64,000 bases of DNA, from NCBI GenBank assembly GCA_965655095.1, contig OZ296657.1, forward strand, positions 26,040,001-26,104,000, written 5' to 3'. The notes under the pieces were generated by a model. The model worked only from the letters and a program-made list of their open reading frames with translations, made no database searches and was not told the DNA's origin. A program made the position numbers and the translations under genes. Positions 27,899 to 60,139 of this stretch are shown piece by piece. Each line of letters opens with the position of its first letter. Positions within the stretch are counted from its first letter, which is position 1. This stretch comes from Haplodiscus bocki. Lineage: Eukaryota.

Positions 27899-27899
27899 T

Positions 27900-28700: not shown

Positions 28701-28879
28701 TTTGAATCTTCACAAAATTAACAACGGACAAATTTTGAAATTTTTTCCAAAGACTTCTCACATATTGAGCGGATCAAAAGAGAAAACTTGAACGATATAA
28801 CGTATGTACGCAACACATTCATCGAACTGAATTTGCAGCAAACTTGAGAAGTAACAATCACTTGCTAAAAACCGGTGTT

Positions 28880-31800: not shown

Positions 31801-32687
31801 AGTTTCAAGCAAAAACGCTGGTTGGCTCCTTATGTTGCCCTATACACAAAAAAACTGCTACAGATGACCCTTTCAAATAACATTTCTGCAAATTGTCAAA
31901 CAGTGCTTTTTGTGAAGGAACAATGGGAAATGAAGGGAATAAAATAAGAGTAACTTTTATGTGATAATGAAGTACTTAAAATGCCAAAAAGGCAAAGTTA
32001 AATAGAATTTGATAGTGTAAAATCAAATGATGGTTTTGATGTTCTTAACCTGAAAAATAAAAAAAGTTTTAATCGATGAACCAATTTAAATAGGTTTTAC
32101 TGTTTTAGAGTCATCAAAACATATTTTGTATGAAACTTAATATGACACCTTGCAACGATTTTTGATACCGAATTGGAAAATAATCTGCACTTATAATAAG
32201 TGGATTGTGATTCATTTGTATTGAGTATTGAAAGAAATGACTTCAGAAAAGATTTGATTAAATTGAAAGAAGATAAAGATTTGTTTGATTTTAATAAAAC
32301 TGCTGGAGACTATCTTTTTTTTTGTATTAAGAATACGGATATAATTGGTAAACTCAAAATTGAGACTCCTGATAAATTATACATAAAAACGTTTTGTGCA
32401 CTGAGATCAAAAGCATATGCTTTTCTCAAACCCATTGAAAAACAAAAGAACTGAAACTTACAACTGAAATTAATGCGAAAAGAATGAAAATTGATGAAAA
32501 TATGCAGTGTTCATATTGAATTGTTTCAAACAAAAACAAAGATTTTACTGAAACTGTTGATGACTGTGTTGTTCGAAACAAAAATCAAAAAAAAATTTAA
32601 TTACAAAGCTTTATCAAAGTGGCTTTAAATGATTTTGATGACAAACGAAAAATTTTCAAAAAGGTAAAAAGCCAGCCATGGTCTTAA
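28880..32687 (+). pseudogene. polB: Protein-primed family B DNA polymerase, many frameshifts
   Basis: GSGLVF, YLKTDV, LRGGISGV, DYNDFYGASMSQ (motif A), VISFKQKRWL, VDCDSF (motif C), GKLKIE, FCALRSKAY, DDKR. Confidence 0.92.
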
Positions 32688-35600
32688 ATTCAATTTTGCT
32701 AGCGAAGATAGCAGTAAACACGTCTCCATCACAATCTTTTGATGGTATGATGCAATGTCTGTATTCATACCAAACATTCTCAAATACATTTTGATTGAGA
32801 GAAAAAATTTAAAAAAGTTTTTTATGAAATATACTTTTCTTTTTTTTTAACATCTTATCAGTACTCCGCCTTTGATAAAGTTTTTTTGATAATTTCTGGA
32901 AAAACAAATTTTCATAAAAACAATTTTTTTACAATATAGTTTTCGTTTTTTTTTTGGGTGGAGCCAGCATGACTCGGACAGTCCATAACTTTGAATCAGT
33001 AGCCCTCCTTTGACATAATACGTTTGAAAAATTTTTAAACTTTTCTTCTGTTAAAAAAATGTTTCGTTTAGAAAATAAGTTAGAATATTTTTTATCTTGC
33101 CTTTGTACCAACCCACTGATGTGTGCAAAAAACACAGCTGGCATATCTGGAGTATGTTATCGTTATCAGATTTTTTTCCCGATTTTCTACTTTCTTCTGT
33201 TTTATTTTTTTTAATTTTAGCCTCTAAATCATTATTCATGAGTACCCTCGTTGATGTGTGCAAAACACACAGTTCGCATAGCCACCATTTAAAATAGTTC
33301 TTTTTTTTTCAAAATATTTTTGAATTTTCAAACATGTTTGATTTTTTCATCTTTTAGATTTTATCCAAAGATTTTTCAAAAACTTATCTTATTTTTTTAA
33401 TTTCTGGTTTTGTGCAACTTTTTCATTTTTATTTGGTTTTAGTTTGTTTTATCTTACCTTTGTAATTTTCTTTTCGTTCTATTGGTAAATTTTTAGTTTT
33501 TTTGCAATTTTTTCATTTTCATTTTTTAGATTTTTTTAGTTTTCGTTTTTTAGTTTTAATTAATTTTTTTAAATTTTTTTCTTTTAATTAAATAACTTCT
33601 TTTTACCTTTTTACCTGTTTTTTTTCGCGTCATTCTTGTCTACCTCCATTGATGTATAGCGAACAATTCACGATCAACTAAAACAAAAACATTAGTAGTG
33701 TGTAAAACAGCATTTGACGCGAAAAACCGCGGACGCAGTAAAAATTAATAGAAAATTTAATGAAAGTTTATACTATAACAACGGGGGTTCACAAGAATGA
33801 AAAATAATTTTTGTAAAAAGTTTTATGAATGATATTATCATTGGGTGTACTCTGGAAGGAGAAAAGTTTTTAACGTACTTGTTTTTTATCTACAGCATAA
33901 AAGTTTTTGTAGCCTAAATTTTGTCTGTTGCTGTGATGACTTTCAATTGTTTTCGATGAATTTCATAAAATTAGGCGGATAGCTTCCGAACACTTAGTGG
34001 TGCGTGCGCAAACCAAAGATTTTCGAAAAATTTTCGCATGTTTGTCAGTTTTTGGATTGTTATTAGGTGTCTCAAAAAACATTACCAGCTGACCCACCTT
34101 GTTGCTAATTTCGTCAGCCTTAGCAACTTATTGCATCACTCGGAACCTAGACTACAGGTAAATCTACAACTTTCATAATGGGATTTTGAAATCAGCAAAA
34201 GCTTCAAGTGACCGAAAAAATAAGTCATTGACCAATATCAGTAAACAGTTTGGGTGAATGACAGTTCCCACACTCTGAGCGTTGTCTCAACCAACAAACT
34301 GTCTCTTCTAGAGGGGGATGAAGAAACGTATTTTTAAATAATGTTAGTTAACATGGGAGAATGGTTCACAAAACAGCGGCAAATATCGATGTCGGTGAAG
34401 TTAGTAGGTTTATTGATGTCGATGATCATTCAAAGATACCGGCTGCATCAGTAATCTTGGACCCCCTTCTTCCAAATTTTTCGGTCAAAGTTCAAAATTC
34501 AAAGTCTTCGAAATAAGTTTTCTGCCGCAAAATGTCCACCATCACACCAAGAAATCAATTTTGAGCAGAGCAGCCAAAAAAAGCAAAGTTTTACAACTCA
34601 CAGCCGGAATGAAGTTTTATATTTCTAAGTTTTTTCATAAATAACTCAAAGCGTTCTTTTGAAAATCATTTTCAAGAGTACCATTTTCTGTCAAAAACTA
34701 TACTTACTGAGCTAAGAGCGAGCTTCCTCCGACGATGGGTTCCCTTTTTCAACATTTCAGCAAGTTTTTTTACCATTTCTGACCCACTACCGGCGAAATT
34801 TTTGCAGCGCTGTTGAGTCTTTTGTTTAGCGTCTGCTCATTGTTGGGAAAGTTTACTTATTCGAAATACTTTCACTCAGCCAACATTATTTGAAGGCAAT
34901 GGAAAACATCGCCTCAATGAGCAACTGGTTCGAATTGCAGTTGCCTAGTTGATAAAGAATCAATGAGGTAGCTTAGTAGAATCATTTTAGCATAACCATA
35001 TAAAACATTTTACACACCCAAAATAGCGCACAACGTAAAACAAATTAGTAAAAAACAGCAAAAATTAAGTGAAATTAGTAAAAAACCGCAAAGTTTAGGT
35101 AAAATTATATAAAAAAAGTGCAGGATAATGTAAAATTATACTATATCAATGGGAGAACACAGGAAACTATAGAAATTGTACTATATGATGGCTAGGCCAA
35201 TTCTGTGCTTGGCACACATCAATGGAGGTACACGGGAATGTTGATGAAAAATAAAAATTCTATTTCGGGAAAACAAAGGTACACTCAGAGGGAGGTTGTC
35301 GGTCTCAATTAAAATCAATAGCTCATAGTTTAATTAGTCCACGCTGAAAGTTTGAGCCTCACATCTATCATAGTTTTCGAGAAAACAAATTTTAAAATAG
35401 ATCAAAGGGCTCAAAAGTAAGTAGAAAACCACTCGAGCGGAAACTTTTTTTACGAAAGCAACGAAGTTTTAAGCTACAGAAAATTATAATATAACATTGA
35501 AAACGTTTTGAAAAATGCTATTCAATGGTAATTTTTTCGAAAACGTTGACTGAAACTATTATCATCAAAAACCTGAAACTAAACTTGAAACATGGTATAC

Positions 35601-35839
35601 CAAAAAAAAGTGTAAATTTTAGTGGAGTGTTATACATCCTTGGAAAGTTCTTGAAAAAAGGTACTCAATAGTAATGTTCTAGACAACGTTGGCTGAAACT
35701 ATTCCCATCTGAAACTGCAAAGATTGGTTATTTCAATGAAAAATTTTCGAAAAATTATGACATATTATATACCGTTCAAAAGGTGTTGAAAAGCTTTATT
35801 CAATGATACCATTTTCGAAACGTTGTATAATACATTTAG

Positions 35840-36410
35840 CTTGAATCTCTGTCGTGAATAGGTTTACAATTTTTAAAATCATTACCATATTCAACGATAC
35901 CTTCATTTTCAACTGTAAATTTATTGCCTTTCCTTTCATCATCTTTTTTATATAACTAAACATACTCATCTTTTTGTGTTGAATTTTTATGTTCTTCAAA
36001 AGGGATATTTTCTCGATGGAACAGAAACTAAATATTTTCTATACCGTGAGCATATGGGTATTTTACATCATTAAAAGCATCAATTGAACTGTATTCAACT
36101 ATGGTATAAGTCGTTTCAAAGCTGACTATTTTTTCTCCCGCATGAATATATTTTTCATGTTCAATTTCCAATAGGAGTTTTTTATCGTTTAGTCTTCTAT
36201 TATAAAAATCTTCTGGGTGTTCATTTGGTTTAAGCAAATTCAAATAATTAGGATTCATAAGTATTTCAGTTTCATGATGTGGACCTTTTCTACAGGGCAT
36301 TTTATAAACCTGAGTTTTGTTTGAATTACTAAAAATTAAAACCATATAAGTATGAAATCTATTATGTCAGAACGGTTGGATTTCAGGGTTGTTTTTGCCA
36401 AATATAGATT
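35840..36410 (-). pseudogene. Conserved terminal accessory gene (family of 58459-58977)
   Basis: LLEIEHEKYIHAGEKIVSFET...NDVKYPYAHGIENI. Confidence 0.6.
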
Positions 36411-36653
36411 TCATTTTTATTTTCATTTTATCATCCATTTCTTTGAAACAATTTCACCCGATGTGAAAATTGTCATATGGAAACCACATTTTTTTCTTTT
36501 TATGTCTTTTTTATTAATATCACTGAATATATAATTCACCTCAATGTCTAGATTTTCAAAACCGTATTCCTTAACAACGATACCATTTTTTTGTTTATAT
36601 GTGTTTTGATTTACTTTTAATTATATATATTTTTCATATAAATACCTGAGAAA

Positions 36654-36944
36654 TGAAAAACACATTTTGTTGAGAACAACTATCAAAAACCGGTGATCTC
36701 AAGGTTGGTTTGATAATGAGACAAAATAAGTTGGATAAAATGGCTAAACTTATGGAAATCAACAATTTCAAACCAAAACTAAAAAAATCTAAAAAAGCTA
36801 GATGGTTGAAAGCATCACCTTCTACATCACAACGTTATAGAAGAGAATAAAATATGCTTTCACCCTATAGAATACCAAGCATTGCCACAAGAAAACAAAA
36901 TTCATCCGACCATGATCACAAAATGACCTCAAATGACCACAAAA
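36654..36944 (+). pseudogene. HTH gene remnant, truncated
   Basis: Reverse-complement copy of 50577-50868. Confidence 0.65.
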
Positions 36945-37431
36945 TTCTTTCTTTTAATCCTCTCGACTATTAAGAGTTCGTCATTTTTTCGTCTACGCTA
37001 AATGAAAATTCATCGTTTTTTTCCTCTCCAGAAAACAACAAACCAAGTTGCAAAGCAAATGGTTTTCGATTTGGTTCCGTTTGACAAAATGAATTTTTGT
37101 AGTGCGTGAAACAGCTTTTGACGCAAAAAACCGCGGAGGCAGTAAAAATTAAGCAAAATTTATTTAAAAATTATACTATAACAATGGGTGTACACAAGAA
37201 AGAAAGTTTTTTCAATGTACCTGTTTTTTATCTACAGCGTATGAAAGTTTGCTCTTTAATTTTTTATATTTACATAAACATAGACTTAAAGAAAAGTTTG
37301 CACGTGTATTTCTTATGTTTAAGCGATACTGAAAAAACCACCACCACCACACACTAAAAAGGGTGTTTGTATCTCGAAGATGGTAGTCTACCATGTATAC
37401 ATACCATAACTAGTTTTTTTCTTTCTTTTTT

Positions 37432-37690
37432 GTCTCCTATAGCTGATTGGTATATGCAAAGTGGCATTGACTAAAGTTAAGGCTGTACTTGCATAGTCGT
37501 AGTGTGTTGTGGTTCACTATTATCCAACGTCCCACTGTCTATGTCGTGCAACCATCATGAAACTTTAGGAGGAACTGTCGATATCACGATGCCTAAGAAG
37601 CTTACATGTTCGATAGGAAAGCTTCGCCAGGAACGATCACTCGAAGACAGTTGAAAAACTAGACATGAATTTTGGCCCGTAACGTTTTTT
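37432..37690 (+). ncRNA. Putative structured non-coding RNA (~259 nt), more eroded copy
   Basis: Aligns end to end with the reverse complement of 56725-56978; covarying stems; ends in a T6 run. Confidence 0.55.
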
Positions 37691-39387
37691 GTTTTTGGTT
37701 GATTGATAAGATTTCTCATATTTATATGTACACCGTGTAGTGTCAGTTTTACTGGTACATATTTTTTTATTGATATCTCCACGAATTCTTATCCGATTGA
37801 TGTCAAACAAAAACTAGCGTAATTTTAATTGATATGAAAGTTTTGATTTGAGAGAAAAAATTGAATTTACCGTCCTACCATGGCAAAACTAGACTTACCA
37901 TCTCACTATCGTAAACTCAGAGGGTGTCGGTCTCAATTAAAATCAATAGTTCATAGTTTAATCAGTCCAACCTGAAAGTTTGAGCCTCACATCTATCATA
38001 GTTTTCGAGAAAAGTTGATTTCAAAAAGATCAAAGGGCTAAAAGTTTAGTAGTAAACCACTCAAAAGGAAAATTTTTTATTTTCGATTCAGATTTTACCA
38101 CGGTCACTTAAACATGTTAAATTTACGAAATCAACGAAGTTTGAGCTACAGAAAAGTATAATATACATTGAAAACGTCTTCAAAAATGCTGTTCAAGTGT
38201 AATATTTTCGAAAACGTTGACTGAAACTATTATCAATAAAAACCTGAAACTAACCCTGAAACATGGTATGTCAAGGAAAAAGTAAAAATATTGGTGGAGT
38301 GTTGTGTAATATTGGAAAGTTCTTGAAAAGGGTTATTCAATGTTAATGTTTTCGAAAACGTTCGCTAAAACAAATACCATCTGAAACGTCAAACATGGTG
38401 TTTTTCAAAGAAATGTTTTTAGGTGTTTTTGACATATTATATACCGTTCAAAATGTGTTGAAAAGCACTATTCAATGATGCAATTTTCGAAAACAGCGAC
38501 TGAAAATATTACCATATCATATTTAAAAGAACAACCACTTTTCAGAATTTTTTCAATTTACTGATTAATTATCCTTTTTCTACACGCGAAATTAAAAGGT
38601 TTTCAAAATTTCTTACAATGAGTTCCTACATATTCTGGATTTCGAGATAATATTTTGATAAATTGTCTATGACACAATGGTTTTTGAAATTTTAAATCAT
38701 AACATAAGTTTACATTTGATAGGTTTGAATCATCTTTTTTGTTAATTTAACTTTTTCAATAATTTTGAAACCATTGTTTTTTGCATTTTCTAATTTTTCA
38801 TTTAATTCATAGTGTTCAGATGTAACTTTCACAAATCTATGACTAATAGTCAAAATAATTCTCCATTATTTTTAAAACTTGTCAATTTAACATCATACAC
38901 ACATGTACATTCAAATCTATGAAAAAAGTTATTTTAACAATCAGTAATAACATCATCGAGTATAAAATTTACTTCATTGATTTCTGGTTTTAAAAACTCA
39001 TAATCTTTTACAACAGTACTTTCGTTCAATTTACCATTCATTCATTAAGGATGTTTTCCTTGAACCAAAAAATCTTTTCAAAAAAAAATAATAGCTTGAG
39101 TTTGTTAAAAAGAAAGAAATTTTAGCCTTGGAAAAAATGTCCATGAGAATCTTTTGGTTATTATTTAAACGCTCAGCTGTTCTAACAACAATAGGTTTAG
39201 CAATATAGAAACTTTTTTCTTCCTTGTAAAAAAGTTCATCCAATTGATTCCAAACAATCTTGTACATACTATTGTGACGTTTTTCTTGAAGTCTTCCTTT
39301 TGATTTTGCATAATATCTCACAATTTTTCTCCTTGTGAAAGTATTTTTCCTACAGATTTCTTTTGTTTTTTAAACCCTTCAACACTT

Positions 39388-42300
39388 CTAATTCAAAGGT
39401 AAACTTTCAATATTATTTTATAACAACGTTTATCACCAAAAGGTGATATTTTAGATTTTTTTATTTTTTGAAGATACTTTTCATGATTAAGTGATCTAAG
39501 AATATAATTATCACTTTCTGTTTGTTACTTTTCACCATCTAAACAATTTTTATTTTCATATTTAACATGTTTCGATTGAGCTTCAGAAATAACTTTTAAT
39601 TTCTCCGTGTTTTTATCATTATATTTAAATGAATGAGTTTTACTCCTCAAAGCAATAAATTCATCTATCCAAATATTTTTAGGAGCTTCAATTTTATATT
39701 CACCAAGAACTTTTTTTATTTCTATTACTGAATAAGTCATAATCTTTGATTAAATTGCCGATATCAAACAAGTCTTCAAATTTTTTTAAATCAATATTAA
39801 TTTTTTCAGTTCTGATACTCAACACAAAAATGTCACAGTCCACATACAGTAATTTTAAAAGTTCCTGTCCAAAACATGGTTGTAAATTATCATAATTTCT
39901 TGCATACAATAATAATTTTCAAAAAGCTAATACAGTAAATCTTAAAAAAATTGGTTTCATTCTTCTTAAAAATATAACTATCATAATTTTCATATGACTT
40001 ATGAATTTCATTGAGGGTTAATTTAAATTGTTGTTTTAATATTTTTTTTTACTCATATTTCTTTATTTAAAAAATCTAATCTCACACAATTTTGTACGTT
40101 TTCCATTGTTTTCCCATAAAGTGATTTTTAAAGTGATTATTAAAATTACCTTTCAAAATAATTTTTTGCTAATATTCTTTTTTGTGTATCAAAATTATTT
40201 TTTTTTCTACCACTCACTTTGTTTAGAAGAAATAGTCTCATGATTTTTTCTACTATAATCCCACGTCTTACATAAATTTTTAACATTCTTTATTGAATCA
40301 AGTAATTTTTTTATCCGTCCAATTGCAAATTAACTTTTCATTTTTTGGATAAAGAACTGGTTTTGTCTTTTTTTATGTATTCAGTAAACTTAGCTCGGAG
40401 CAAAAGGAATTCTTTTGTATTTAGTTTTATATTATCAGGATATTTCGATTCAACTTCAACGAAATAACCAAAATTACTATCATCCTCATTATTTATAAAA
40501 ATTTCAAAATTATCCATCTAAAGATCACGATGACCATGCCACATCTCAATTCGACCATAAGGTAACATTTGAGACATTGCCCAACAATACGAATTATTTG
40601 CATCAAAATACAAGATCTTTTGCCTTTCATCTGATAGAACATAACTATCACCCATTACAGAGCCTAATGCATCTCTAACATTGTTCTCTAATGACAAAAT
40701 TAAATGTTATCTTGAAGGGTTGTAGTTTAATATTAGTTTGTTTCAATGCACAACGCCAAGTATAACCAGGTGAACTCACACAATACAAAGTTAAAACCTT
40801 TAATTGATAGATTAAAAAGTTTCTCAAAAACATCAGCTAAATTAATTACAATACTTCTCAAAAATAGTACTGTAATTTCTTCTCCACTTTTAATATTAAA
40901 AAAGTTAATAGTTTCTTTTTTTCGTTCGTTTTGTTCGTCCTTAGGATATTTGTTTTTAAGTTACTGAAGGAGCCTTCTTTCTTTAAATCTTCAACAGCTT
41001 TTTAATAACCCTCAAGACCAGTAAAGTATTTTTGAGGATAGGCTAATTTTTATTTAGATATTGCCAATTATCTGGAAATTCATTTTTCGAAACCACGAAT
41101 TCATCACTATCTAAACTTTTAACTAGTGAATCTAAGCTACTTGATAACAATCGGTAGCTATCAATAAATCCTATACAACCATAAGTAACACAAAGGTATT
41201 CTTCGTTCGTTTCAGGTATAAAATCAAATTTAACTTTATCATTCTTTCTATCAACTAACTCTTTAAAAAACAGATGGCAATCAAAATTAGTGAAATTAAG
41301 CAGTGCAACTGGTATAAATTTACTTTGTGTTTGTATGATATTAATATTACATTTGTTTTTAGCTTGTCCTCGGTATTTAATTGTTAAGCGACAATGACAT
41401 CTAACTTTATCAGATTCTAGAGTTTTTCACAAAAATGACAAACCTAATTGTAATCCAAATCCTCTCTTTCTTTTTGCATCAAAAAACATCTTTCCTAGTG
41501 TTTTTTAAAAGAAAACCATTTTAGTTTCCAATTTAATAATTTCCTTCACAAACCATTTTACATTATCATATCCTATAGCAGATTTATAATAACCACTTTT
41601 CAAACACCCTCCAATTCAGAAACTATACAACAACCATTACACGCAGGGTTTTCTATATGAATAATAAATGTTTTAAAACCTTTACTAGATTTATCGATTT
41701 CATTAGCGGCTTCAAATTCTGCAATAATCCTAAAATATAACGCATTCTTATTAAAATGTTTTTTCCCTTGACGTTGAGGTTCGTTTGAAATTATAATAGT
41801 AGTTATTTCTTTAACTTCACATCTTGGTTTATGTATCATTAACAAAAATTCACTTCTATAGGAAATTAAACACCGTCTATGTATGACTTTGTTTATGATT
41901 CCCCAAAATGACACGTAGTTTTTTTAAGGAGAGCACAAGGATTTTCATAGATTAATATGTCAACAAATCTATCTGGTTCAGTTTTTCACTAATGTCTTTA
42001 GGAAATAAATTATATTTCCTTTTGTTTTGATCTTGATAAAACTTCAGTTCAAATATGGTAGTAGATAAGTTAAATAATTTCTCAGATATATACATATCAC
42101 TACACCTAAATCCTTCAGTAAAATCAAAACCTTGAATGTTTGATTCGTTGAAGTTTTGTCCATAAAAATATTTACTCTTGTTGGATGACCATTTTGACAA
42201 GGACGAAGTTGAGCTATTAGAGATCAAAGGAAGCGATATTTATCAATATGTTCAATTTTTAAGATAGCATTTGATCTCAACGGAAGAATAATACAACTCG

Positions 42301-43020
42301 AACCATTCAATTCATCAGTTTTATAAAATCGTTTTCTCATTGAGTTAACTTTATCAAATATCAATCCACTATCCTTTTTTTCCTGAATTTGATTTTGATG
42401 TTCTAATTGTCATTTATCGTCAATGGTATTAAAATCAGATTCTGTTAACTTTTTCCTAATACTCAAAATGATAAATACTTCGAATTCATCACCTCTTTGA
42501 TCTTCTTCACTATTCTCATGAAAGCTGGCTGAATATAATATATGATATTTAATTTTTTATTGATCTAATATTGCAGCGTAAACAAAAGTCAATTTTTAAA
42601 AAGATTTTGTGAATATAACTGGTTTCAATCCCAAAATTTATGAGAATTGGTATAATGGTTAAAACAGAACTTGAAAGAATATTATTATAACTATGAAGAA
42701 TATTTTGGAAACCAAATTTCAAGCTATTATCAGTGGAATATTATGGATTAATCGTTTTTTTAGCTACCTTGTCATCTATTTTTTTCTCATTTGTTTTAGT
42801 ATTTTCTATAACTATCTGTCTTAGGAGTTTAGGATTCTTTATTTTCAAAATTTTTTATCAATAGGTTTTTGCTCTTCTCTAATTGACCATTCTGATACAA
42901 TTATAACATCTTGTTTTATTTTCTCCGAATGATTTTCAGTTCTCAAATGTTTTGCATAACACGCTCGATGAAAATCAATATCACAAAATTTACACCTGCG
43001 GCTGTTTTTCCATTTTGCGT
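39388..43020 (-). pseudogene. polB: Protein-primed family B DNA polymerase
   Basis: N-terminal CKFC..H..H finger, DSGLIFD, CHCRLTIKYRGQA..CN, FIDSYRLLSSSLDSL, YFDANNSYCWAMSQ, YVDCD, FIALRSK, SPFGDKR. Confidence 0.92.
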
Positions 43021-43084
43021 GTCTATTTATTATGGATGAATTCGTTGAAATAAAAACCCCTTTTCAAAAAAAAATAATAAATCA

Positions 43085-43400
43085 GTGGAAAGTAAAATCT
43101 TTGCCATGTGTAATATTGAAAAACATATCAACAACTTTTACAAAAAAAATTCAGAACGTACAGATTGCAAAAGCAGAAGAAACTTAAACCGTTACTATGA
43201 TAATAAAGATGAAATATCAAGTCAACGAAATATATATTATAAAAAGCTAAACTATTACAGAAACAAAATGATGTTTCATACACTTCATTTTGATAAACAA
43301 GATGAAATATACACTTCAAAGAATAATTTAGAATCTACATTGATTTAGAAAACAGGTTGAAAGCATTAGAAGAAAATTTCTCAAAAAACGAGTCAGAAAG
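43085..43400 (+). pseudogene. Small Cys-rich/coiled-coil protein remnant
   Basis: MCNIEKHINNFYKK..TDCK pattern of eroded CxxC pairs. Confidence 0.4.
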
Positions 43401-43419
43401 CTATATTTTTTTTTATAGA

Positions 43420-43850
43420 TGAAATGGAGATCCTCATAAAAGACATGTCTTGCAAAAGGGCGACGGTAATTCGGTTGATGTATCAACCACAATAACGAAA
43501 CAATTTTTTAATAAAATACATTCTTCTACTAAATTAACACCAATACAAGCTTCTTTAAAAACCAATGAAGGATATGTTTACCATTATTTATTAAACAAAC
43601 AAACGAAAATAGAACCAAAAATTCAAGTAGACAATCTCGTCATAACAGCAGACTTGAAAACAACTTTCTCAAAACGAGATGCGACTCATTGTTCCTATAA
43701 AATGTTTAAAATAACAGAAATTATAAATGATACAATACCGAGTTATCGCATTGATAATTGAAAAAAACGATATAATGAAGCCATGTTGAAAAAAAAAATT
43801 TAACTTTGAAAGAAAAAAAAACAGTTATGAAAGCCCTAAACTTTATTTAA
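43420..43850 (+). pseudogene. Integrase C-terminal half; catalytic core deleted
   Basis: KIHSSTKLTPIQASLK...VDNLVITADLKTTFSKRD...ITEIINDTIPSYRID; homologous to 27900-28250. Confidence 0.85.
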
Positions 43851-44210
43851 ATCAGAATGTTTTTGTCCATGACTAATTCTTTCGTTAACACCAAAGCATA
43901 ACCATTTAAATCGAGAGGAACAAATCCATCAAATTTAAAATCTACTTTAGTCGGGTAGGAGGCTGTATAATTTTGTTGATATCTTATATCGAAAACATAC
44001 AAAATATAACCAATTTCAACAACCCCTGCGTTTGAACATCTAAAATCATCATCACTGATATATGGTTGAAGGTTATCATTTTTCGATAAAATTCTAAAAA
44101 TTTCTCCAAATTGAGCTTAGGTTTGAGAATAATCTTCATCAAAACAATTTAATATTATACCAGCATCAGGGTATTTTTCTGTCCCGATATTACAAGGACC
44201 ACTAGTAACA
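43850..44210 (-). pseudogene. Major capsid protein C-terminal fragment
   Basis: CNIGTEKYPDAGIILN...LQPYISDDDFR...LYVFDIRYQ...NGYALVLT. Confidence 0.75.
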
Positions 44211-44219
44211 GGTCATTTC

Positions 44220-44767
44220 TTTTGCAAAGTCTTACAATAGTTTTTTGTCCGCTAAATTAGCAAGATCATTGTTATAGTTTTCGTTAGACATCATTTTCAA
44301 GAGATCGCCGTGTAATTCGGTTTTTTGTCCTTATCACGGAATGTCAACAAATTGTTATCTGGAGTAACTGGTGGTTTTTTGTTTATCAACAAATCGTTTA
44401 CCCAATTTGAGTTATAATCTTTCATTAGTTCGATGTGGCTGTTATTTTTAGAACTAGTTATTTTAGATAGAAGAAATAACAATTGAGATGCTATTATACC
44501 TTTGTCTATCAATATTTCTAAAAGTTTGTCGTTGAAAATCTCCAATGCTTTGTTGTTTTTAATTGAATTTTCCGTCATAGTTTGTGTTACTTCTTAAGAG
44601 ACATCTAAATTAGTTATAGTGACGGGTTCAAAAACTTTTTTCATGTCCTCATGAAACTTCTGTTTACCAAGCTTATCTTGTAATCTTACTGCTTTTACTT
44701 GGCTTTCTAATAAAACTAACTTGTTTAATTTTTCAAAATCTTCTCTATCTTTAATCGAGTACAACAT
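44220..44767 (-). pseudogene. Conserved coiled-coil gene after the ATPase
   Basis: MLYSIKDREDFEKLNKL...; homologous to the genes at 7530 and 60914. Confidence 0.6.
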
Positions 44768-44774
44768 TTATGTT

Positions 44775-45340
44775 AATCGGAAATGTTTCGTTTCAGGAGT
44801 GCATTATGTATAGGTAGTTTTATTAAAATTTCTTAAAGACTACCTACCCTCTCCTGTTCTAACGAACTTGTCTATTTGTATTTATTCAGAATCAATTTTC
44901 CAAGCCTTAGGACATAGACAATTCCATTCTTCTAAATTCACAACTAATCCAGTTATGTCATGAAATAATAGTAGGATATCTCTTAGAGTTTGTTTACTTG
45001 AAGGAAATTATATTAGAAGTATTAGGATTAGTAGTTTTTGGGAAATGAATTTGGTTTTGAGATATATAATAAAAATCATTGTTTCTATGACCTCCTCGAG
45101 TAAAAAACGATTCATTATTTATTTCTTGTTTTGATAGCAACATATCTTCAAAAACAACAGTGCTGTTTTCATATTTTTTTTTGGTTGAGTTTCGCTTGAT
45201 GTTTGAGTTTTAATAATTAGATAATAATTTAGTGATTTTGTAATCATAAAAAATGTTTCCTGTTTTTGAAGTAGAAAATAATTCTGTAGATAAATTTTGC
45301 CACAATTTGAAAGTCCTTTGGTTAGGGTTTGATTATAATG
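44775..45340 (-). pseudogene. A32/FtsK-like packaging ATPase
   Basis: GLSNCGKI (Walker A), VVFEDML (Walker B), FFTRGGH..YYISQ, KQTLRDI. Confidence 0.85.
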
Positions 45341-45719
45341 AATATTATTATCGAGGCTTGGATGTTGGTGTGAAATTTTGATTTCATTTCCAGAAGAGAG
45401 ATTCTGTTTTTTTTCTAATCCTATTGTAACAGCTTTTGCAAACGGTTCTATCTTTTAGAAAGTTATTTGAATCTATCTTTCTGTTACATGCAGTACAAAA
45501 CTTTTCAACATTCATTCAATGTAAACAGATCTGAATATTTCTCGTTCAATATAAACAGAACAGAACAGTTCTCATCATACCAAAACCAAAAGAGTTCAAG
45601 TTTTATTAAAGCAGAACAGAACAGTTCTATGTTCTAGGTGTTCTAGGTTCTAGGTTAAATTTTAATAAAATTTTATTGGAAAAATTTCCTTTTTGTATGT
45701 CCATATTCATAACAAAAAT

Positions 45720-46230
45720 TCGTTTTTCGTTTCATTTAAATAATTAGTAAAACTATTACCTAGAGGTTCATCTTCACTTTTATCAATTAAATTTTCTTGG
45801 AAACTTTTTCTTTATAATTAATCGAACAATTCAATAGTTTGTTGGTCTTTTTCATATAAATTTTTGTTTTTATTAAACATTTTCAAAACTAATTTATGTA
45901 TTACTTTTCTACCCAATGATAGAGCACAAGCAATACCAGAGAAAAATGACACTACTACTAATCCAACACCGGTAACCGATAAAGTTACAGAGGTTGTGGT
46001 TGCTCCAACGATTACAATTGTATCAACTGATTCTAAAATTGATGTGAGTGTTTTATAATTCTTATTTTTCTTTTTTGAATTGTTTTTTTTATCTTTAAAA
46101 TTAGTATTCACTTCTTCAGAGTTATTAATTGAAATATTAAAATTGTTTACATCATTTGTTTTTCTACTAATCTCTGCTCTAAAACAACATTTTCTAACGG
46201 TGCTGAGGGGTACAATCGGTCTGTTTCTTG
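45720..46230 (-). pseudogene. Conserved membrane protein with two hydrophobic helices
   Basis: VDTIVIVGATTTSVTLSVTGVGLVVVSFFSGIACALSLG; homologs at 6181, ~19950 and ~22420. Confidence 0.65.
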
Positions 46231-46259
46231 TTCCACTTATATAGTATAAATTATACAAA

Positions 46260-46640
46260 TTTATCCAAGTATAATGCTTTCCCTGTGTGATAGAAGTTGA
46301 TCGCCTCTGGCTGCCTGGAGAAAGCTGCTTTAAAGCTTCGGGGAGCAAATGCACTACCAACGTTTGCTGCAAACTCCAATGCTCATCCTGGGTCTTTTAA
46401 AATGTTTTTTTTTTTGCCAGTTTTTTGAAACATTAATTCCTTCTCATAAATAAAACCTTGAAAACGTCACCGAAACCTTGTGCTTGTGTAGTTTGATTAC
46501 TAACAGTCGTCGATTTCTTTCTATTACAAATTAAACAAGAACTAATTAGTAATTTACATATTTTAGAAGTTATATTACCATTAAATTTTTTTGTAGCAGA
46601 TCAATGTCTACCTCCAACGCAATAAGAATCCATTTTGAAT
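46260..46640 (-). pseudogene. Zn-ribbon plus amphipathic-helix virion protein
   Basis: YCVGGRH...CLICNRKKS...QAQGFGDVFK...ALEFAANVGSAFA. Confidence 0.6.
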
Positions 46641-46699
46641 TTTTCAAAGCTCTTTTAGAAGTTCAAATTTTGATCTATTGCACAGAAAAAGTCATCGTC

Positions 46700-47759
46700 T
46701 CTCCGTTAAAATAAATTATCATCTTCTAAAGAAATTGTTATAGTATTCAAAACAGATTTATTTGTTTCTTAAAATGAATTGTTTCAAGTTGGCAAAAAAC
46801 TGTATAACCATATCGTTTATCTAAAACAAAACCTTAGAATGGCTCATTCTAAACCATTCACTGCACTACCATCAATACAATCACATTTCAAATAGAGTTT
46901 AGTTTTTGTACTTAAATTTAAATTTTTATCACTAATTTAATAAACGTGGGTTAGCAGCATGACTTGCATCAGAAGGCTTGTTATCCCAATATGGTGTAAA
47001 ACCTACTAAAGTTATGAGTAAGGTTTTTTCAACAAATCCCAGCGTTCCAAAAGTTCCAACAATACGAGTTAAAATAAGTTTTGTTTCCATGCTAATATCA
47101 TCATATTCAATCTTTAGGGTTCCTTAATGATCACCCATGGTGTAAACAGTCACTGAAATATCTTTAATTGTGAATGCTCCGGGTGTTATTTTATAAGTGA
47201 TAGAGTTTGAATTGTTTTGTTCTAAAATCAATTCAATAACATCTTCATCTAAACTAACCACAATTCTAAAAAAAACTTTCAAAGTCTCGAAATGGTGATC
47301 TAGCATAACCCTTTAATAGTATAATTTAACCATCAGTCCTTCTCGTTTCAGTTTCTAGTTTTTTATGTGCTGAAATTTTAGGCGGTCTTTTTATTTTACC
47401 TTGTAGATGCTCGAGTGTAATATTTGAAGTTTCGAGGATCTCCTCAAGTTGATCTTTTAATTCTGCAAAAAAATCTTCCAAAGTGTCTATATAAAGTTCG
47501 AATTTGTTAATTTCTTCAGTTACATTAAAAAATTAAATTGTATATTTCCAAACTTGTTAATCTAACCATCCATTAAGGGTCACGACTAAAATTTTTAAAT
47601 GGTTTAAATGAAAAAGTTTCTCGCAGTTCGATAAGTCTAAATTCAAGTGTTCTTTGTGGTTTTGTATGGGTTTGATGAATAGGCATTTGAGAAATTTTTC
47701 CTAATTGATAGTAATAGATTTTTTGTTTCATTTTCAGGTCGAACCATGTTTAGGTTCAT
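46700..47759 (-). pseudogene. Minor capsid (penton-like) protein, paralog 2
   Basis: KPQRTLEF...WMVRLTSLE...YKITPGAFTIKDIS...LGFTPYWD...LKCDCIDGSAVNG. Confidence 0.7.
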
Positions 47760-48830
47760 TTAACATTACAAAATTTTATTTTCACTAATTGACCAATAAT
47801 TGCTAACGTTTTTCTATGAAAAGTAACTGGTTTGTGATCGTTGTCTTTCAAATGAAATGTTATACGAGACAGAACAGGTTTATTTTTTTTTTAAAAAAAT
47901 TTACTGTTAATTCTTAGTAAATTTTTTGATCCGGAGGTTTATCTAATGCAAAATTATACAAAATAGCTTCTCTAATACCATTTACTATACTTCCATCGAT
48001 GCAATCACAATTTAGGTGAATTTTATCGATTCCTGTAATGTCAATAGGTCTGTCGCTTTTAAAGGATCCTAATATTAGTTGAAAAAATCTGCAGTATCAC
48101 CTAGTGGACTTGAATGAGATTGGATAAATCCTAATATGGTATTAAAAAATATTTTTCAGTAAACCTCATTGTTTCAGTTATGGTCAATTTTGATTTCAGT
48201 CTAATATTATCAATTGTAAACATTATTTTTACATTATTAGGAAGTAAAAACTTTAACATCAAGTTAATATGAGTGCTTTCATGTATTCCCGGTGGTAATG
48301 TATATCCAATAGTTGATCCAGCAATCTTTTTACAACCAAGATATCCACAACCTTATTAGAGGTTAATTCCATTCTATAAACCATATCTTCAAGATGTTTA
48401 TATTCTACTCTCTTCAATTCTTCAGTTATCTCAGCTTTACGAGTGTCAAGATCTGATAAGTTATGTTCTTTGTCTCCTACTTTTAACTGTTTTCCTCTTT
48501 TTTTAACTTCTTTTACATGCACATCGATATGATTTTAGATCAAAGGTCTAATAAATCATCTAGCTTGTTAGCAAGTTCTTCATCTCCTTCGGGAGTCCAA
48601 TTACTTGGCGTTGAAACTGAAAAACTGTTATTTTCATGAATTATATCAAAAACAGAAATGGTTGTTTCAAAACTCGTTACCGCTAATGACCATTTTTCTT
48701 AGGAAAGGTTTCCTGAGGGGTTAATTGAAAAAGACTGCCTTAGCTTATTCATTTTAAATTCAAGCGTTCCTTGTGGTTTTGTCTTTGTTTTTTCATTTAA
48801 CGTATCTGTATGTTTTTTATTTGAAAATAA
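47760..48830 (-). pseudogene. Minor capsid (penton-like) protein, paralog 1
   Basis: KPQGTLEFKM...WSLAVTSFE...IDITGIDKIHLNCDCIDGSIVNGIREAILYNFALDKPP. Confidence 0.7.
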
Positions 48831-49069
48831 CAAATCCAAATTCGTTCGAGTATACCAAATGTTTCTCCTGTTATGTAATATTTAATGAACTTTTTATTAT
48901 TTTTTGACAGTTTTTTGTTTTGTTTATATGTTAGTGAGTTTTTCTTTATCGACTTTGGTCTAACCCCCCCTCTCTCTTGAAATAGATTGAGTTTGTTCAC
49001 TTTTTGCGATATAAAATACACTTTTATCAATAGTTAATTTCCGTAACGTCAATTAATTTGAAGAAAACT

Positions 49070-49500
49070 TCAACTTTTATATATCCTTTGATAATACACA
49101 GTCAAAAAAGCAGATATAAATCTAAACCTATAACTTCCATCAAAAAAATTTTATATAAACAAAAATTCGCTCTAAAAATATTTCTTTTATCTGTTACAAA
49201 TTGTATTTTGTATTCAGTATATAAACAAAATCAATTTCGTTTTATGATAAACTTAGATACTTTTTGAGGAGGCGGACAACCATTTGAATCAAAATAGCAT
49301 TCGTGAATGTATAATACCCAGTGATTACTTTGAAATGGATGTAAATTAACGATTCCTGTATCAAATTCAAGTGATCCTTCCCCTAAATTGATTCCTACAT
49401 CATTCAAAGACAAAAACCGCAGGACCTGTTGAGTTTTTGTATTTGGTGTTGCTTTATTTTTGAAATTGTATTCTTGAAATAAATCATTGACAGACAACAT
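49070..49500 (-). pseudogene. Adenain-like cysteine protease
   Basis: GIVNLHPFQSNHWVLYIHECYFDSNGCPPP: HW and YFDS.G catalytic motifs. Confidence 0.85.
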
Positions 49501-50576
49501 TACCTCCTTCTAAATCACCTCTACGTCTTCCAACAAACAAAAAGTTTTTTCAAACTGCATCAGGTTTGGGTAAACTACCAAATAAACCTTCATTATCAAG
49601 TACTTGTATATTTGTTTTAACAGCTCTTTGAACTAACACCTCTTTTACAGACCGTTTGCTATCGTTGTTATCTTCTTCATTATTTGAAATATGAGCTTCT
49701 GCTTTTGATGAAATTTCATCTAAAAACCTTTGTTCATGACATGTGTATCATTGGAAGGTTCAAAATTTGTTGTTTTTTTTCATCTTTTTTAAAAATATCG
49801 AATTTTTCAAGTTTTAATTTGTTAAGATTAATATCTTGTACTTTATCTCTTTTAGAGACAATACTATCCAACTCGTTTTACCATGGTTTTTTGTAACTTT
49901 TTTGTTCCATTTTTTAACAAGGATAATCGGGATTGCATACAATAGTAGATAAAGAAACACATAATTTTTATGAAATTGTTTCTATAAACAAATCAAAATC
50001 AAAACAAAAATTTAAAATAAAGATTTTAGTTTCGTTGTTGTTTTTTATGTTTAAGGTGTTTGTGATTATTAAGCAAAATATTCAATATATCCATAATACT
50101 ATCACGTTTTTTCAAGTGTTATTTTATTTAACCCTAATCGTTTGTTCTCTTTTTTAACTTCAGAATCTGGCAACCATATTTTATTCTCCAAAAATTCTGT
50201 TCCAGTACCTTTTTGCTCTATTTCTTTATCCATATCTTCAATTGTGTCTCCCATTATTATTATTGCTTGTTCAAAAACGTTACCTCGGTTCAAAGCAGTC
50301 TGCCTTATTTTTGATTGTGTTGAAAACGTTTCCTCATCATCTTTTCCAAGGGTTTGTGATATTTCGTTTTGGATATTTGAATGTTTTCATTTATAATTTC
50401 TCTAAATTCAGCCATTTAAACATTTTAAAAAGATTATTCGGAAAGAATATTTCCTTGAGTAGGACTATCATCATTTGGACCTCCATCTCTTAAGTTATTT
50501 TTTGTTTTTTTTTAGGAACCAGGTTCATCATTTTCATTTGAGTTTTTTGAGGTCACTTTGAGGTCATTTGAAGTCA

Positions 50577-50868
50577 TTTTGTGGTCATTTGAGGTCAATT
50601 TCTGATCATGGTCGGATGAATTTTGTTTGCATGTCGGAATGTTTGGTATTCTATAGGGTAAAAGCATATTTTATTCTCTTCTATAACGTTGTGATGTAGA
50701 AGGTGATGTCTTCAACTCTCTAGCTATTTCCGATTTTTTTAATTTTGGGTTGAAAGAGTTGATTTCTATAAGTTTAGCCATTATATCCATATTATTTTGT
50801 CTCATTATCAAATCAGCTTTGAGATCACTGGTTTTTGATATTTGTTCTGAAGAAAATGTGTAATTCAT
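50577..50868 (-). pseudogene. HTH DNA-binding protein
   Basis: NPKLKKSEIARELKTSPSTSQRYRRE. Confidence 0.7.
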
Positions 50869-51167
50869 TATTCAGGTATTTATATAAAAAATATATATAT
50901 TTAAAAGTAAATCAAAACACGTATACACAAAAAAATGGTATGGTTGTTAAAAAATACGAATTTAATAATATAGACATTGAAGTGAATTATATATTCAATA
51001 TTATTATTAAAATAGACATAAAAAGAAAAAAATGTGGTTTCTATATGATAATTTTCACATCGGGTAAATTTGTTTCAAATAAGTGAATGATAACAAAAAT
51101 GAAATCTAGACTTGGAAAAAACAACCCCGAAATCCACACGTTCAGACTTAATAGATTTCATACTTAT

Positions 51168-51677
51168 ATGGTTTTAATTTTTAGTAATTCAAACAAAGCT
51201 CAGATTTATAAAATGGTTTATAGAAATAGTACACATCATGAAATTGAAACATTTATGAATCCTACTTATTTGAATTTGGTTAAACCAAATGAAGACACAG
51301 AAGATTTTCATAATAGAGGACTAAACGATAAAAAATTCCTCTTTGAAATTGAAGATTAAAATTATATTCATGTGGGAGAAAAATTAGTTAGCTTTGAAAC
51401 ACTGACACCATAGTGGAGTACAATTCAATTGATGATTTTAATGATGTAAAATACCCATATGCTCACGGTATAGAAAACATTTAATTTCTGTTCCATCGAA
51501 AATATATCTCTTTTGAAGAATATAAAAATTCAACACAAAAGGATGAGTTTGTTTAGTTATATAAAAAAGATGATGAAAGGAAAGGCAACAAATTTACAGT
51601 TGAAAATGAACGTATCGTTGAATATGGTAATGATTTTATAAATTGTAAACTTATTCACGACAGAGATTCGAAATAAA
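51168..51677 (+). pseudogene. Terminal accessory gene (inverted copy of 35840-36410)
   Basis: MVLIFSNSNKAQIYKM...NDVKYPYAHGIENI. Confidence 0.6.
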
Positions 51678-54420
51678 TGTAATATACAACGTATCGGAAA
51701 ATGGTATCATTGAATAGAGCTTTTCAACACCTTTTGAACGATATATAATATGTCATAATTTTTCAAAAATTTTTCATTGAAATACCCAATCTTTGGAGTT
51801 TCAGATTGTAATAGTTTTAGCCAACGTTGTCGAAAACATTACTTTTGAATAACTTTTTCCAAGAACTTTCTAATGACTTATAACACTCCACTAATATTTA
51901 TACTTTTTATTGGTATACCATGTTTCATGTTTAGTTTCAGGTTTTTGATGTTAATAGTTTCAGTCAACGTTTTCGACAAAATTACCATTGAATAGTATTT
52001 TTCAGGACGTTTTCAATGATATATTATATTTTTCTGTAGCCTAAAACTTCGTTGCTTTCGTAATTGTTACATGTTTAAAAGACCGTGGGAAAGTCTGAAT
52101 AGAAAATAAAAGAAATTTCCACTTGAGTGGTTTTCTACTTACCTTTTAGCCTTTGATCTGTTTTAAAATTGTTTTTCTCGAAAACTATGATAAATATGAG
52201 GCTCAAACTTTCAGGGTGGACTAATTAGACTATGAGCTTATGATTTTAATTGAGACCGACAACCTCTGAGTATACCATTGTTTTCCCGAAACAGAACTTT
52301 TTTTTCATCAACATTCCTGTGTTACTACATTGATGTGTGCCAAGCACAGAGTTGGCCTAGCTATCATATAGTATAATTACTATAGTTTCCTGTGTTCTCC
52401 CATTGGTATAGTATAATTTTACATTATCCTACACTTTTTTTATTAATTTTACCTAAACTTTGCTGTTTTTTACTAATTTTACTTAATTTTTCCTGTTTTT
52501 TACTAGTTTGTTTTACGTTGTTTGCTATTTTGAGTGTGTAAAAAGTTTTATATGGTTATGCTAAAATGATTCTGCTAAGCTACCTCATCGATTCTATATC
52601 AACTAGGCAACTGCAATTTGAACCAGTTGCTCATTGAGGCGATGTTTTCCATTGCCTTCAAATAATGTTGGCTGAGTGAAAGTATTTCGAATAAGTAAAC
52701 TTTCCCAACAATGAGCAGACGCTAAACAAAAGACTCAGCAGCGCTGCAAAAGTTTCGCCGGTGATGGGTCAGAAATGGTAAGGAAACTTGATGAAATGTT
52801 AAAAAAAGGGAACCCATCGTCGGAGGAGGCTCGCTCTTAGCTCAGTAAGTATAGTTTTCGACAGAAAATGGTACTCCTAAAAGCTACTTTCAAAAGAACG
52901 CTTTGAGTTATTTATGAAAAAGTTTAGAAATTTAAAATTTCCTTCCGGCTGTGAGTCGAAAAACTTTGCTTTTTTTGGTTGCTGTGCTCAAAATTGATTT
53001 CTTGGTGTGAAGACGGACAATTTCGGGCAGAAAAGTTATTTCGAAGACTTTGAATTTTGAACTTTGACCGAAAAATTTGGAAGAAGGGGGTCCAACATTA
53101 CTGATGCAGCCGGTATCTTTGAATGATCATCGACATCAATAAACCTACTAACTTCACCGACATCGATATTTGCCGCTGTTTTGTGAACCATTCTCCCATG
53201 TTAACTAACATTATTTAAAAATACGTTTCTTCATCCCCCTCTAGAAGAGACAGTTTGTTGGTTGAGACAACGCTCAGAGTGTGGGAACTGTCATTCACTC
53301 AAACTGTTTACTGATATTGGTCAATGACTCATTGACTTGACGGCCTTTGCTGATTTTAAGTTCCCATTATGAAAGTTGTAGACTTACTTGTAATCTAGGT
53401 TCCGAGTGATGCAAAAAGTTGCTAAGGCTGACGAAAATAGAACAAGGTGGTTCAGCTGGTAATGTTTTTTGAGACACCTAAAAACAATCCAAAAACTGAC
53501 AAACATGCGAAAATTTTTTAAAAATCATTGGTTTGCGCACGCACCACTAAGTGTTCGGAAGCTGTCTGCTCGTGGTTTGAAAGTGACCATTTATCAAGTT
53601 TTTCTACAAGTTTGATCCCCATTAGCTGGAAAGTTATGCTTTGGGCGCTAATAGTACTTAGAGCTGAAGAGTCATTCCATGTTTCAAGTTGGCTGCTGAT
53701 CAAACTGATTTTTTTCTTCTGGAGCAGTTAAAGTCTCAAAAATGTCTTTTGTTATTTTTCTTCGGAAGACTACTAACCCTAGTGGGACGTGCAGATATTT
53801 TTGTGAAGTGCATGCATGCAGGCAGCCAATTTCTTTATGAACCATGGAAAATTAAGACTTTTAGCATACAAAAATTTTGATTGTTGTCGCTGCAGCAGCA
53901 GCAAAAGTTTGTTCAAGATGTCAAGGTAATACAGAAAACGTAAGAGTTATCACACCTCTATTGATTGACTCAATCATTACTACCTCTGAGGTGCTCATAT
54001 TAGTTATTTCCTTTAGGCTTTGACCATTCACCTTTTTTTTGCTTAGTAAGTGACTCGGCGCGGGTACTTATAAAGATAATCTGTATTGTTGCTAATGTAA
54101 TGCGCGACAAATTTGTAAGTCTGTCCGTTGTAAGAGTAATCAGGCTGCATCCAAAAGCCTGCAAGACGTTTTCTAAATTTTTGTCTGCCAATTTCTGAAA
54201 GCAAATTACACAACCCCGCCTAATTTTTCGAAATTCATTGAAGAAACTTGAAAGATATCACAGCAATAGACAAAACTTAGGCATGGAAAATTTAATATGA
54301 ATCATTAAAAAACTTTGGAAAAGTGTTTAGAACCATATAAAATCTAACAAAACTTTCCTGATTTTCGACTAGGAAGGTTTTCCACAAATTATTAGTTAAA
54401 TGTAATGGTTTTAAAGAGAT

Positions 54421-56439: not shown

Positions 56440-56453
56440 GCAAATATTATAGT

Positions 56454-56541: not shown

Positions 56542-56724
56542 CCACGCTCGGTCGTTCGCTAAGCTCACTCACCGGCTTCCCTCCAGTCAGCCTCTCGCTT
56601 ATTTTATTGGCTGCGCCACTCACTTGCCTTTTTTTATACACTACTTAGTCGTGAAACTATTGAATTAAGTTTAAAAAGAAATAAAATTGAAATTATAAAA
56701 TTATGTACAATTTTTAATTTTTAC

Positions 56725-56978
56725 AAAAACGTCACTGGCCAAGCCTGATGTCTACGTTTTCAAGCAGCTTACAGGAACCTTTCCTGGCAACGTTTCCCAT
56801 CGATCTAGTCAGCTTTTTCAAGCATTAAGATATAGACAGTGCCTCCATATAGCTTTCGTGCATGATGACAAAGACTGGGGGACGTTGGCTAACAGTGAAC
56901 CCCAAACACTGTGACTACCAATTAAGCATCGTCTTAACTTTAGTCAATGTAGCAAATACCACTAGGCTATACAGAGGC
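56725..56978 (-). ncRNA. Putative Pol III-type structured RNA (~254 nt), better preserved copy
   Basis: 13-bp closing stem with two G.U pairs, pseudoknot, GAAA tetraloop hairpin, TATATATA at -32..-25, T5 run at the 3' end. Confidence 0.6.
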
Positions 56979-57089
56979 AGTATAAAGGTAGAGAAACTAG
57001 AATATATATACAAATTCTATTATGGTTCACACAATTTCTCAGTCTCGTGCACGTGTATGTTGTAATAAGTCGACAGACCTTAAACATGC

Positions 57090-57365
57090 ACAGATTTTGA
57101 AGTTTTAAGGTACAACAAAGTGTGATATATCAATGGATAGCCCTTTAAAAGTTTAGTTTGTGCTGAAAAATTCAGCTCTGTAATTTTTGTAATCTTCGAG
57201 AAAATTGATAAAATCAGTATATGTCAACATACCTCAAACATGAAGAGATTACAAATTTTCGAGCTCGAACAATGTGTGATATATCATTCAATAGCCGTCA
57301 AAAAATTAGTATACCCTGAAAATTTCAACTCTGTATCCATTATAATCTTCGAGAAATTGATATTA
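57090..57365 (+). repeat. Two diverged ~154-bp tandem units
   Basis: TGTGATATATCA at 57121 and 57275, each followed by ATAGCC..CTGAAAA..TCA.CTCTGTA..TAATCTTCGAGAAA. Confidence 0.8.
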
Positions 57366-58438: not shown

Positions 58439-58458
58439 TTGTTTATAATAAAAATATA

Positions 58459-59822: not shown

Positions 59823-59832
59823 TAACTAAAAA

Positions 59833-60021: not shown

Positions 60022-60139
60022 TAATATTTATACATATTCTTCATATATGAATACACACAAATATTCGAGTACTTATACTAGGGTATAATTACACATAGTT
60101 GAATACTTATACCAAGGTATAATTATATGTCAAACAAAA

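Follow-up and report, generated by a model that had tools for sequence, protein, structure and literature searches.

Does an old viral element in an animal genome decay under a mutator aimed at it, or under a bias that acts on the whole of its host's DNA? This question is raised by a stretch of 64,000 nucleotides from the acoel Haplodiscus bocki (GenBank assembly GCA_965655095.1, contig OZ296657.1, positions 26,040,001 to 26,104,000 of the forward strand; "the window" hereafter), which lies on the contig that we call C10 of this 1.5-Gb genome and contains a decayed Polinton/Maverick-like element, element B (33694..54290 of the window). A first reading of the sequence (the original prediction) had noticed that differences between homologous copies in element B repeatedly destroy alternating AT, and had proposed a context-specific mutator of TAT/ATA, either a repeat-targeted defence, mutagenic processing of adenine methylation at ApT, or TA photoproduct damage. 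A context-specific and directional mutational process does exist, although none of these three mechanisms fits it well. The base 3' of an A tends to mutate to A (T>A most of all) in every class of sequence tested, six sets in all, with a rate that depends on the length of the A-run, and the resulting spectrum reproduces most of the dinucleotide signature of the host genome. The cause is likely polymerase misalignment at A/T tracts, apparently acting genome-wide, an explanation to which we give slightly more credence than doubt; the erosion thus looks like a context bias of known type that acts throughout the host, and not like an antiviral defence.

Element B opens with AGTAGT at 33694 and is bounded by terminal inverted repeats of 3 kb, the left one on the forward strand (33694..36945) and the right one on the reverse strand (50576..53569; broken at 53570, with a short outer remnant near 54220-54290). 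Aligned from 33975-36945 to 53569-50576, the two arms are 91.6% identical over 2,946 columns. The motif pairs quoted in the original prediction are indeed found where the arms align (at 36547, 36656, 36734 and 36791, against the 50576-53569 arm), and the three terminal copies that it mentioned exist; the third of them (54420..56442, forward strand), a direct duplicate of 51944-53954 at 90.6%, entered our three-way counts. Where the flanks are identical, 34 of the 37 A<>T differences between the arms have ApT in one allele, against 936/1553 invariant A/T sites (60%; p=2e-5). The differences gather behind a 5' A (AWT 10/165, AWG 7/161, AWA 15/474) and are almost lacking at TpA without it (TWA 0/111, CWA 0/176, GWA 2/177), so that the real context is ATN and not TAT/ATA. 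Short-read contigs show 0-1 other letters than element B across the 24 longest pieces among the matches listed, and those at 97% likeness to the element have only 5 differing places; the differences are therefore not assembly errors.

Direction can be read from changes private to one copy. We counted as a polarised event a letter found in a single copy, demanding two identical bases on each side, and collected 3,221 events from six sets, two of them Polinton-related, three from other repeat families and one from duplicated nuclear mitochondrial DNA. These are the terminal copies of element B (158 events), a Polinton-related 1.19-kb family (162), a DUF659 transposon family (370; presumably hAT, its DUF659 match lying just below the cut-off), a family resembling long terminal repeat (LTR) elements (452), an unnamed family without Pfam match (1,910) and the mitochondrial duplicates on contig C8 (169). 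Each repeat family is represented by 30 loci, the best among up to 4,075 candidates (28 of 30 for the 1.19-kb family, two near-identical duplicates having been dropped). The counts exclude a seventh family, of 30 copies near 91%, that was also located. T>A after A, compared with T>A elsewhere, amounts to 18/659 vs 15/1894 for element B (ratio 3.5), 31/5252 vs 13/7875 for the 1.19-kb family (3.6), 39/6129 vs 27/13936 for the DUF659 family (3.3), 30/4438 vs 45/14931 for the LTR-like family (2.2), 151/20994 vs 117/52998 for the unnamed family (3.3) and 19/400 vs 22/1845 for the mitochondrial duplicates (4.0, the highest). The pooled ratio is 3.2 (95% confidence interval 2.7-3.8) with no sign of heterogeneity between sets (p=0.71), all 29 of the 29 copies having T>A events show the same direction, and the effect persists when the identical flanks are extended to 4 bases (36/5957 vs 32/16438). 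Some private changes may date from transposition or from active lineages outside the sample; the mitochondrial duplicates do not have this problem and yet show the highest ratio.

The direction claimed for the erosion is borne out by pairs of opposite changes: ATA>AAA occurs at 0.65 against 0.15 for its reverse, ATG>AAG at 0.42 against 0.20, and ATC>AAC at 0.35 against 0.18. The process is not confined to viral copies, for non-viral repeats and the mitochondrial duplicates show the same enrichment, and A<>T change is not the dominant class, since T>A makes up 527 of the 3,221 events and transitions 1,588 (transition/transversion ratio ~1). C>T at CpG is raised only 1.3x, and ordinary CpG decay, which the original prediction had already set aside, is not the explanation.

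What distinguishes the process is the copying of A. After A, C>A is raised 1.59-fold (1.24-2.04) and G>A 1.43-fold (1.19-1.73); after T, A>T is raised 1.61-fold; the other eight of the twelve directed changes show no copying of a like 5' neighbour, which rules out general neighbour copying for C and G. T>A rises with the length of the preceding A-run (0.17, 0.44, 0.68, 0.53 and 1.04 for 0, 1, 2, 3 and 4+ As; 0.44 after one A against 0.70 after two or more, p=2e-4). Only positions -2, -1 and +1 matter much, and a T inside a T-run is protected (0.6x). An A at -3, which we take to be the mark of a colibactin-like minor-groove process, has no effect once -1 is A, and such a signature was rejected.

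Misalignment of the nascent strand, according to Box 1 of PMC13250602, gives the position downstream of a run the base of the run itself. Our spectrum shows this conversion where the run base is A (T>A 3.2x, C>A 1.6x, G>A 1.4x); with T it is limited to A>T, with C and G it is lacking, and its rate rises with run length. The step that we propose is a polymerase error on an undamaged template: the new strand would slip on a template T or T-run, add one extra A and realign, leaving a mispair that would escape repair, the equivalent on the other strand being a T inserted early before a T. The closest known system is the transient misalignment at mononucleotide runs studied by Kunkel and in E. coli (PMC13250602), which shares with the acoel process, in the accessible part of that source, the change of the base beside a run into the run base, the increase with run length and the limitation to certain types of run. 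It differs in that the strongest trigger there is a template C-run, whereas the acoel genome copies only A (weakly T), and in that the acoel effect begins at one A and shapes the dinucleotide profile of a whole animal genome.

The contexts also bear on damage by light. TA photoproducts, in a sun-exposed and possibly photosymbiotic worm, would account for ATA being the top context, with an independent effect of 1.5 for an A at +1, and for T>A at CTA/GTA/TTA standing 1.6x above background (0.245 vs 0.152). Their signature is T>A at NTA, as given in the accessible text of PMC7709870, and here ATC/ATG/ATT (0.49) change twice as often as CTA/GTA/TTA (0.245; BTB 0.152), the excess at CTA/GTA/TTA appears in only 2 of the 6 sets, and a preceding pyrimidine does not raise C>T (TCN 0.60, ACN 0.56). 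As the main cause TA photoproducts are largely refuted, and we think it very improbable that they contribute more than a minor part.

Is the process limited to repeats? In sixty evenly spaced 10-kb loci of the genome the observed/expected values are 0.83 for ApT, 0.64 for TpA, 1.24 for AA/TT, 0.89 for CpG and 1.11 for CpA, and in the 312 kb without a repeat match in our sample (which may still hold rarer repeats) ApT is 0.81 and TpA 0.61, at least as depleted as repeat DNA (0.84 and 0.68, respectively). In three host genes, fourfold sites carry A less often when T follows (33/176) than when C/G follows (95/354; p=0.04). Mitochondrial ApT depletion was set aside, being inflated by strand skew. 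A simulation in which the measured matrix acts on random sequence of 25% GC leads to TpA 0.63, AA 1.28, CpG 0.88, CpA 1.11, ApT 0.73 and GC 0.40, with the same outcome when the matrix is taken from the non-Polinton sets alone; when only the T>A context is removed, most of the AA excess is gone (1.10). The measured spectrum thus reproduces most of the genome's dinucleotide signature. As to the tracts themselves, A/T runs of 5-9 bases are enriched 2-5x, and only 17 of at least 10 bases occur in 600 kb, against 16 G/C runs of at least 10.

A repeat- or virus-targeted mutator, that is a defence acting on A/T in the manner of fungal repeat-induced point mutation (RIP), has in its favour that all six polarised sets are duplicated, mitochondrial insertions included, so that a trigger by duplication is formally possible, and that the viral sets have a higher normalised T>A rate at ApT (0.64) than the other repeats (0.49). 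This rate is highest, however, in the mitochondrial duplicates (0.89), the sets are not heterogeneous, and the depletion in DNA without repeat match and at host fourfold sites (a test of composition only) shows no restriction to repeated DNA. The ApT rate, moreover, merely equals the ordinary transition rate, which is no hypermutation, and young copies remain 96-99% alike. Fungal RIP is triggered by repeats and produces C>T mostly at CpA. It resembles the acoel process in shifting the composition of old repeats in one direction, but in the acoel the shift is not limited to repeats and C>T before A is the lowest class (0.41), with no RIP-like C>T hypermutation at CpA in the six-set spectrum; the original prediction was right to dismiss RIP. 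We give a targeted mutator hardly any chance. It had been proposed that the same spectrum outside repeats would turn the supposed defence into a genome-wide bias: the enrichment in non-viral repeats and mitochondrial duplicates and the composition of DNA without repeat match largely bear this out.

The genome-wide depletion of ApT (0.83) could also be expected if mutagenic processing of methylated adenine at ApT were at work, and the A of ApT does change more readily to each of the other three bases. Such processing leaves unexplained both the effect of run length and the rise of C>A and G>A after A. A genome search for MT-A70 genes, which can miss split genes, gave 4 candidates and 3 matches, namely METTL14 and two METTL3 exons, hence only METTL3/METTL14; no AMT1-class gene was found, and none of the 4 candidates was METTL4-like. 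According to the accessible text of PMC12695648, animals have lost the AMT1 pathway, and the level of N6-methyladenine does not track ApT depletion. We therefore find methylation scarcely credible as the cause.

Several observations weigh against misalignment, or against so general a bias, and should be considered together. A single A, which offers little register for slippage, suffices for a strong effect, and the near-restriction of the effect to A is not predicted by simple slippage. T after A also turns more readily into C (1.19x) and into G (1.38x), a hint that the ApT step is prone to damage or poorly proofread. The LTR-like family combines its lower ratio with raised T>A at CTA (13/1423), pairs of retroelements carrying a fusion gene show no AWT excess (1/130), and a looser triplet count that includes satellites gives only 8.3 vs 3.7 per 1000 (ratio 2.2). 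None of the six polarised sets is strictly single-copy, the fourfold sites reach only p=0.04, and the simulation overshoots in ApT loss (0.73 vs 0.83) and in GC (0.40 vs 0.37). Finally, the strand that bears the error would be indistinguishable by sequence comparison.

Some of these points suit a lesion-driven process, equally genome-wide. By the A-rule, A would be inserted where an abasic site, a damaged purine or a uracil-derived gap lies 5' of a template T, and a primer ending in A would favour this; alternatively, a dTTP-rich nucleotide pool would fix T errors before T. Insertion of A opposite a missing base before T gives A>T, G>T and C>T, and exactly these changes are raised before T; the model operates with a single A, and T>C and T>G are up after A as well. 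Against this, the dependence on run length and the protection within T-runs suit alignment-based mechanisms at least as well. An A-rule or a nucleotide-pool effect would yield the same three changes as misalignment, and the two would be inseparable by the sequences at hand. We take this alternative seriously without expecting it to be the right one.

Another rival is a weak or altered mismatch repair, in which MSH2 would be absent or highly diverged and slippage mispairs at A/T junctions would become fixed as a result, a variant that we consider unlikely. MSH2 was not found in the assembly by exon-by-exon searches with three Pfam families, TIGR01070, four motif patterns and four MSH2 protein queries, searches that were made on a possibly gapped assembly and that also missed the ATPase part of an MSH5-like gene. 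MSH6 (C10:9347959-9350928, an open frame of 1,265 aa) was the only strong match in every MutS-type search, and both main motifs differ in only 3 of 141 diverse MSH2-like proteins. A motif match on contig C7 sits in a retroelement-like open reading frame (ORF), and weak candidates on contigs C6 and C5 have no score with the MSH2 profile; among the 20 of 150 MSH2 representatives that were looked up no acoel name appeared, 7 of the 20 being nameless. MSH6 and PMS2 (738 aa), both identified by their best solved-structure match, read open, and exons that we take to be of MLH1 and MSH5 are present. MSH2 occurs in every animal genome examined in PMC8438181, as far as the accessible text goes.

The spectra of repair-deficient animals and cells speak on both sides. 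AAT<>ATT is the strongest context in C. elegans under msh-2 knockdown (PMC8727991), T>A at ATT is found in human knockouts (10.1101/2020.08.04.234245), both in the portions of these sources that are accessible, and ATT stands at 0.61 here. The same worms, however, show a rise of ~328-fold in indels vs 23-fold in substitutions, and a rise in transitions (PMC8727991), whereas in our sets one-base indels number 12 per 392, 61 per 3,309, 8 per 322 and 23 per 402 substitutions (2-6%) and transitions are about half of events; this argues against a plain loss of mismatch repair, whose signature of 1-base homopolymer indels with an excess of transitions is not what we see (ratio of transitions to transversions ~1). 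The wild-type A/T to T/A bias of C. elegans likewise resembles the acoel bias in placing A/T transversions at the boundaries of A/T-runs, and differs from it in peaking, according to the accessible text of PMC8727991, at TAA/TTA, which is low in the acoel (TTA 0.20); the large indel excess of the knockdown worms is absent in the acoel. The "reverse template slippage" of human mismatch-repair knockouts (10.1101/2020.08.04.234245) also consists of run-length-dependent T>A at junctions of A-tracts and T-tracts. It is a minor peak there (<3%, in the accessible part of that work), at both AnTm and TnAm junctions, whereas T>A after A makes up ~9% of acoel events (288/3,221), is one-sided, and includes ATA, ATG and ATC. 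A bolder idea, which we would not expect to prove correct, is that MSH2 was lost or remodelled beyond recognition with MSH6, MLH1 and PMS2 kept, giving a free-living animal a non-canonical repair that would fix indels but pass A-after-A slippage errors; this would have altered the dinucleotide signature of the whole genome and would account in part for the long branches on which acoels sit.

How does the bias reach the Polintons? Beside element B lies element D, a Polinton-like element (56640..64000, forward strand) that is better preserved yet broken and runs ~11 kb past the window. The original prediction held D to be the younger of the two, which its interior supports (ORF cover 0.57, against 0.22 for the interior of B) and the identity of the terminal repeats does not (91.4% in D, between 56638-57678 and L065:124-1164, and 91.6% in B). 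Equal arm identity in spite of B's more decayed interior suggests that the arms of B were homogenised, or that B had already broken down at its last mobilisation. The claim that D is richer in ApT and TpA holds (ApT 0.98 and TpA 0.83, against 0.84 and 0.71 in the interior of B), and in 11 Polinton stretches ORF intactness (cover) and ApT observed/expected go together (rho 0.94). AT-rich Polintons arrive with ApT near 1.0, unbiased, and then drift to the dinucleotide signature of the host while decaying; dead Polintons lose ApT and TpA because the base 3' of A mutates to A more often, and the drift is most visible in these elements because they enter AT-rich and with ApT near 1.0.

In themselves, elements B and D are ordinary decayed members of the Polintons, with the long terminal inverted repeats, integrase, A32 ATPase, double-jelly-roll capsid and polymerase-like gene of Polinton/Maverick elements. 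B, with arms of 3 kb, measures ~20.6 kb overall, within the 15-25 kb of a Polinton body, although its right end is truncated and its junctions are rearranged; D has arms of 1 kb and a length of ~18.5 kb. The labels integrase, capsid and ATPase are Pfam matches in D or in related copies, carried to B and D by tblastn. D itself has the A32 ATPase (PF04665, 60255-60740), and tblastn with ORFs of a related copy (L080) revealed in B a broken rve-type integrase remnant (43378..43785, forward strand; 60% to the ORF matching PF00665), a broken double-jelly-roll capsid remnant (43871..44212, reverse strand; 54% to the ORF matching PF21738) and the remnant of a large replication gene (39420..43015, reverse strand; many stops and frame changes). 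We assume the last to be pPolB-like from its motifs, the 1,226-aa ORF used as probe having no Pfam match; another Polinton copy has a weak PF03175 match (25.5 bits, under the cut-off of 25.8). Upstream of B lie an older Polinton-like remnant (27867..32424) with integrase and polymerase-like pieces, more eroded (ApT 0.79 over 17-33 kb), and an old tandem duplicate of ~72% (19318..24596, forward strand) with capsid remnants, in which A<>T differences are again highest at AWT (16/65).

Some further observations concern the genome at large. Positions 1-11494 of the window, with L066, belong to an 8.64-kb tandem duplication at 98-99% identity. Polinton-like DNA occurs in long stretches of at least 8 of the 60 evenly spaced 10-kb loci (L076-L135), and Polinton-like elements make up a large share of the 1.5-Gb genome. 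The old nuclear mitochondrial insertion (L152-L154, C8:16.884-16.909 Mb) is ~68% like the present mitochondrial contig and is tandemly duplicated within (83-87%); a decayed mitochondrial copy of 18 kb stands on a contig of its own (C1991, L155-L156), and the mitochondrial contig C6626 (L062:477-6212) has a segment of ~2.3 kb three times, either a real repeat or an assembly artefact. The mitochondrial cox1 of this genome comes nearest, among proteins that bear a name, to those of the acoels Symsagittifera (81%) and Baltalimania (78%), as befits an acoel host. Retroelements at L092:5797-7998, L093 and L125 have a fusion glycoprotein of Monjiviricetes type (PF24664) adjoining the integrase, one copy with a MATH-domain ORF alongside. 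Two abundant repeat families (L088, L095, L099, L106 and L111; the L104 family) retain long ORF remnants without Pfam match, one of them with 9,316 search candidates.

These results put numbers on the context-dependent substitution spectrum of an acoel; the rapid evolution of this lineage is a confounding factor in animal phylogeny. No earlier report of such an acoel spectrum appeared in the literature searched (titles, abstract openings and the accessible part of PMC9911081), most subscription papers and all supplements lying outside it, and spectra in supplements could bear on its novelty. The case for a new antiviral mutator is removed, and the missing MSH2 is a testable lead. The bias accounts, without methylation, for the loss of TpA and ApT and for the enrichment in A/T-runs; the observed/expected value of ApT offers a rough clock for AT-rich elements in the acoel genome, and models of acoel codon and amino-acid composition should allow for the bias.

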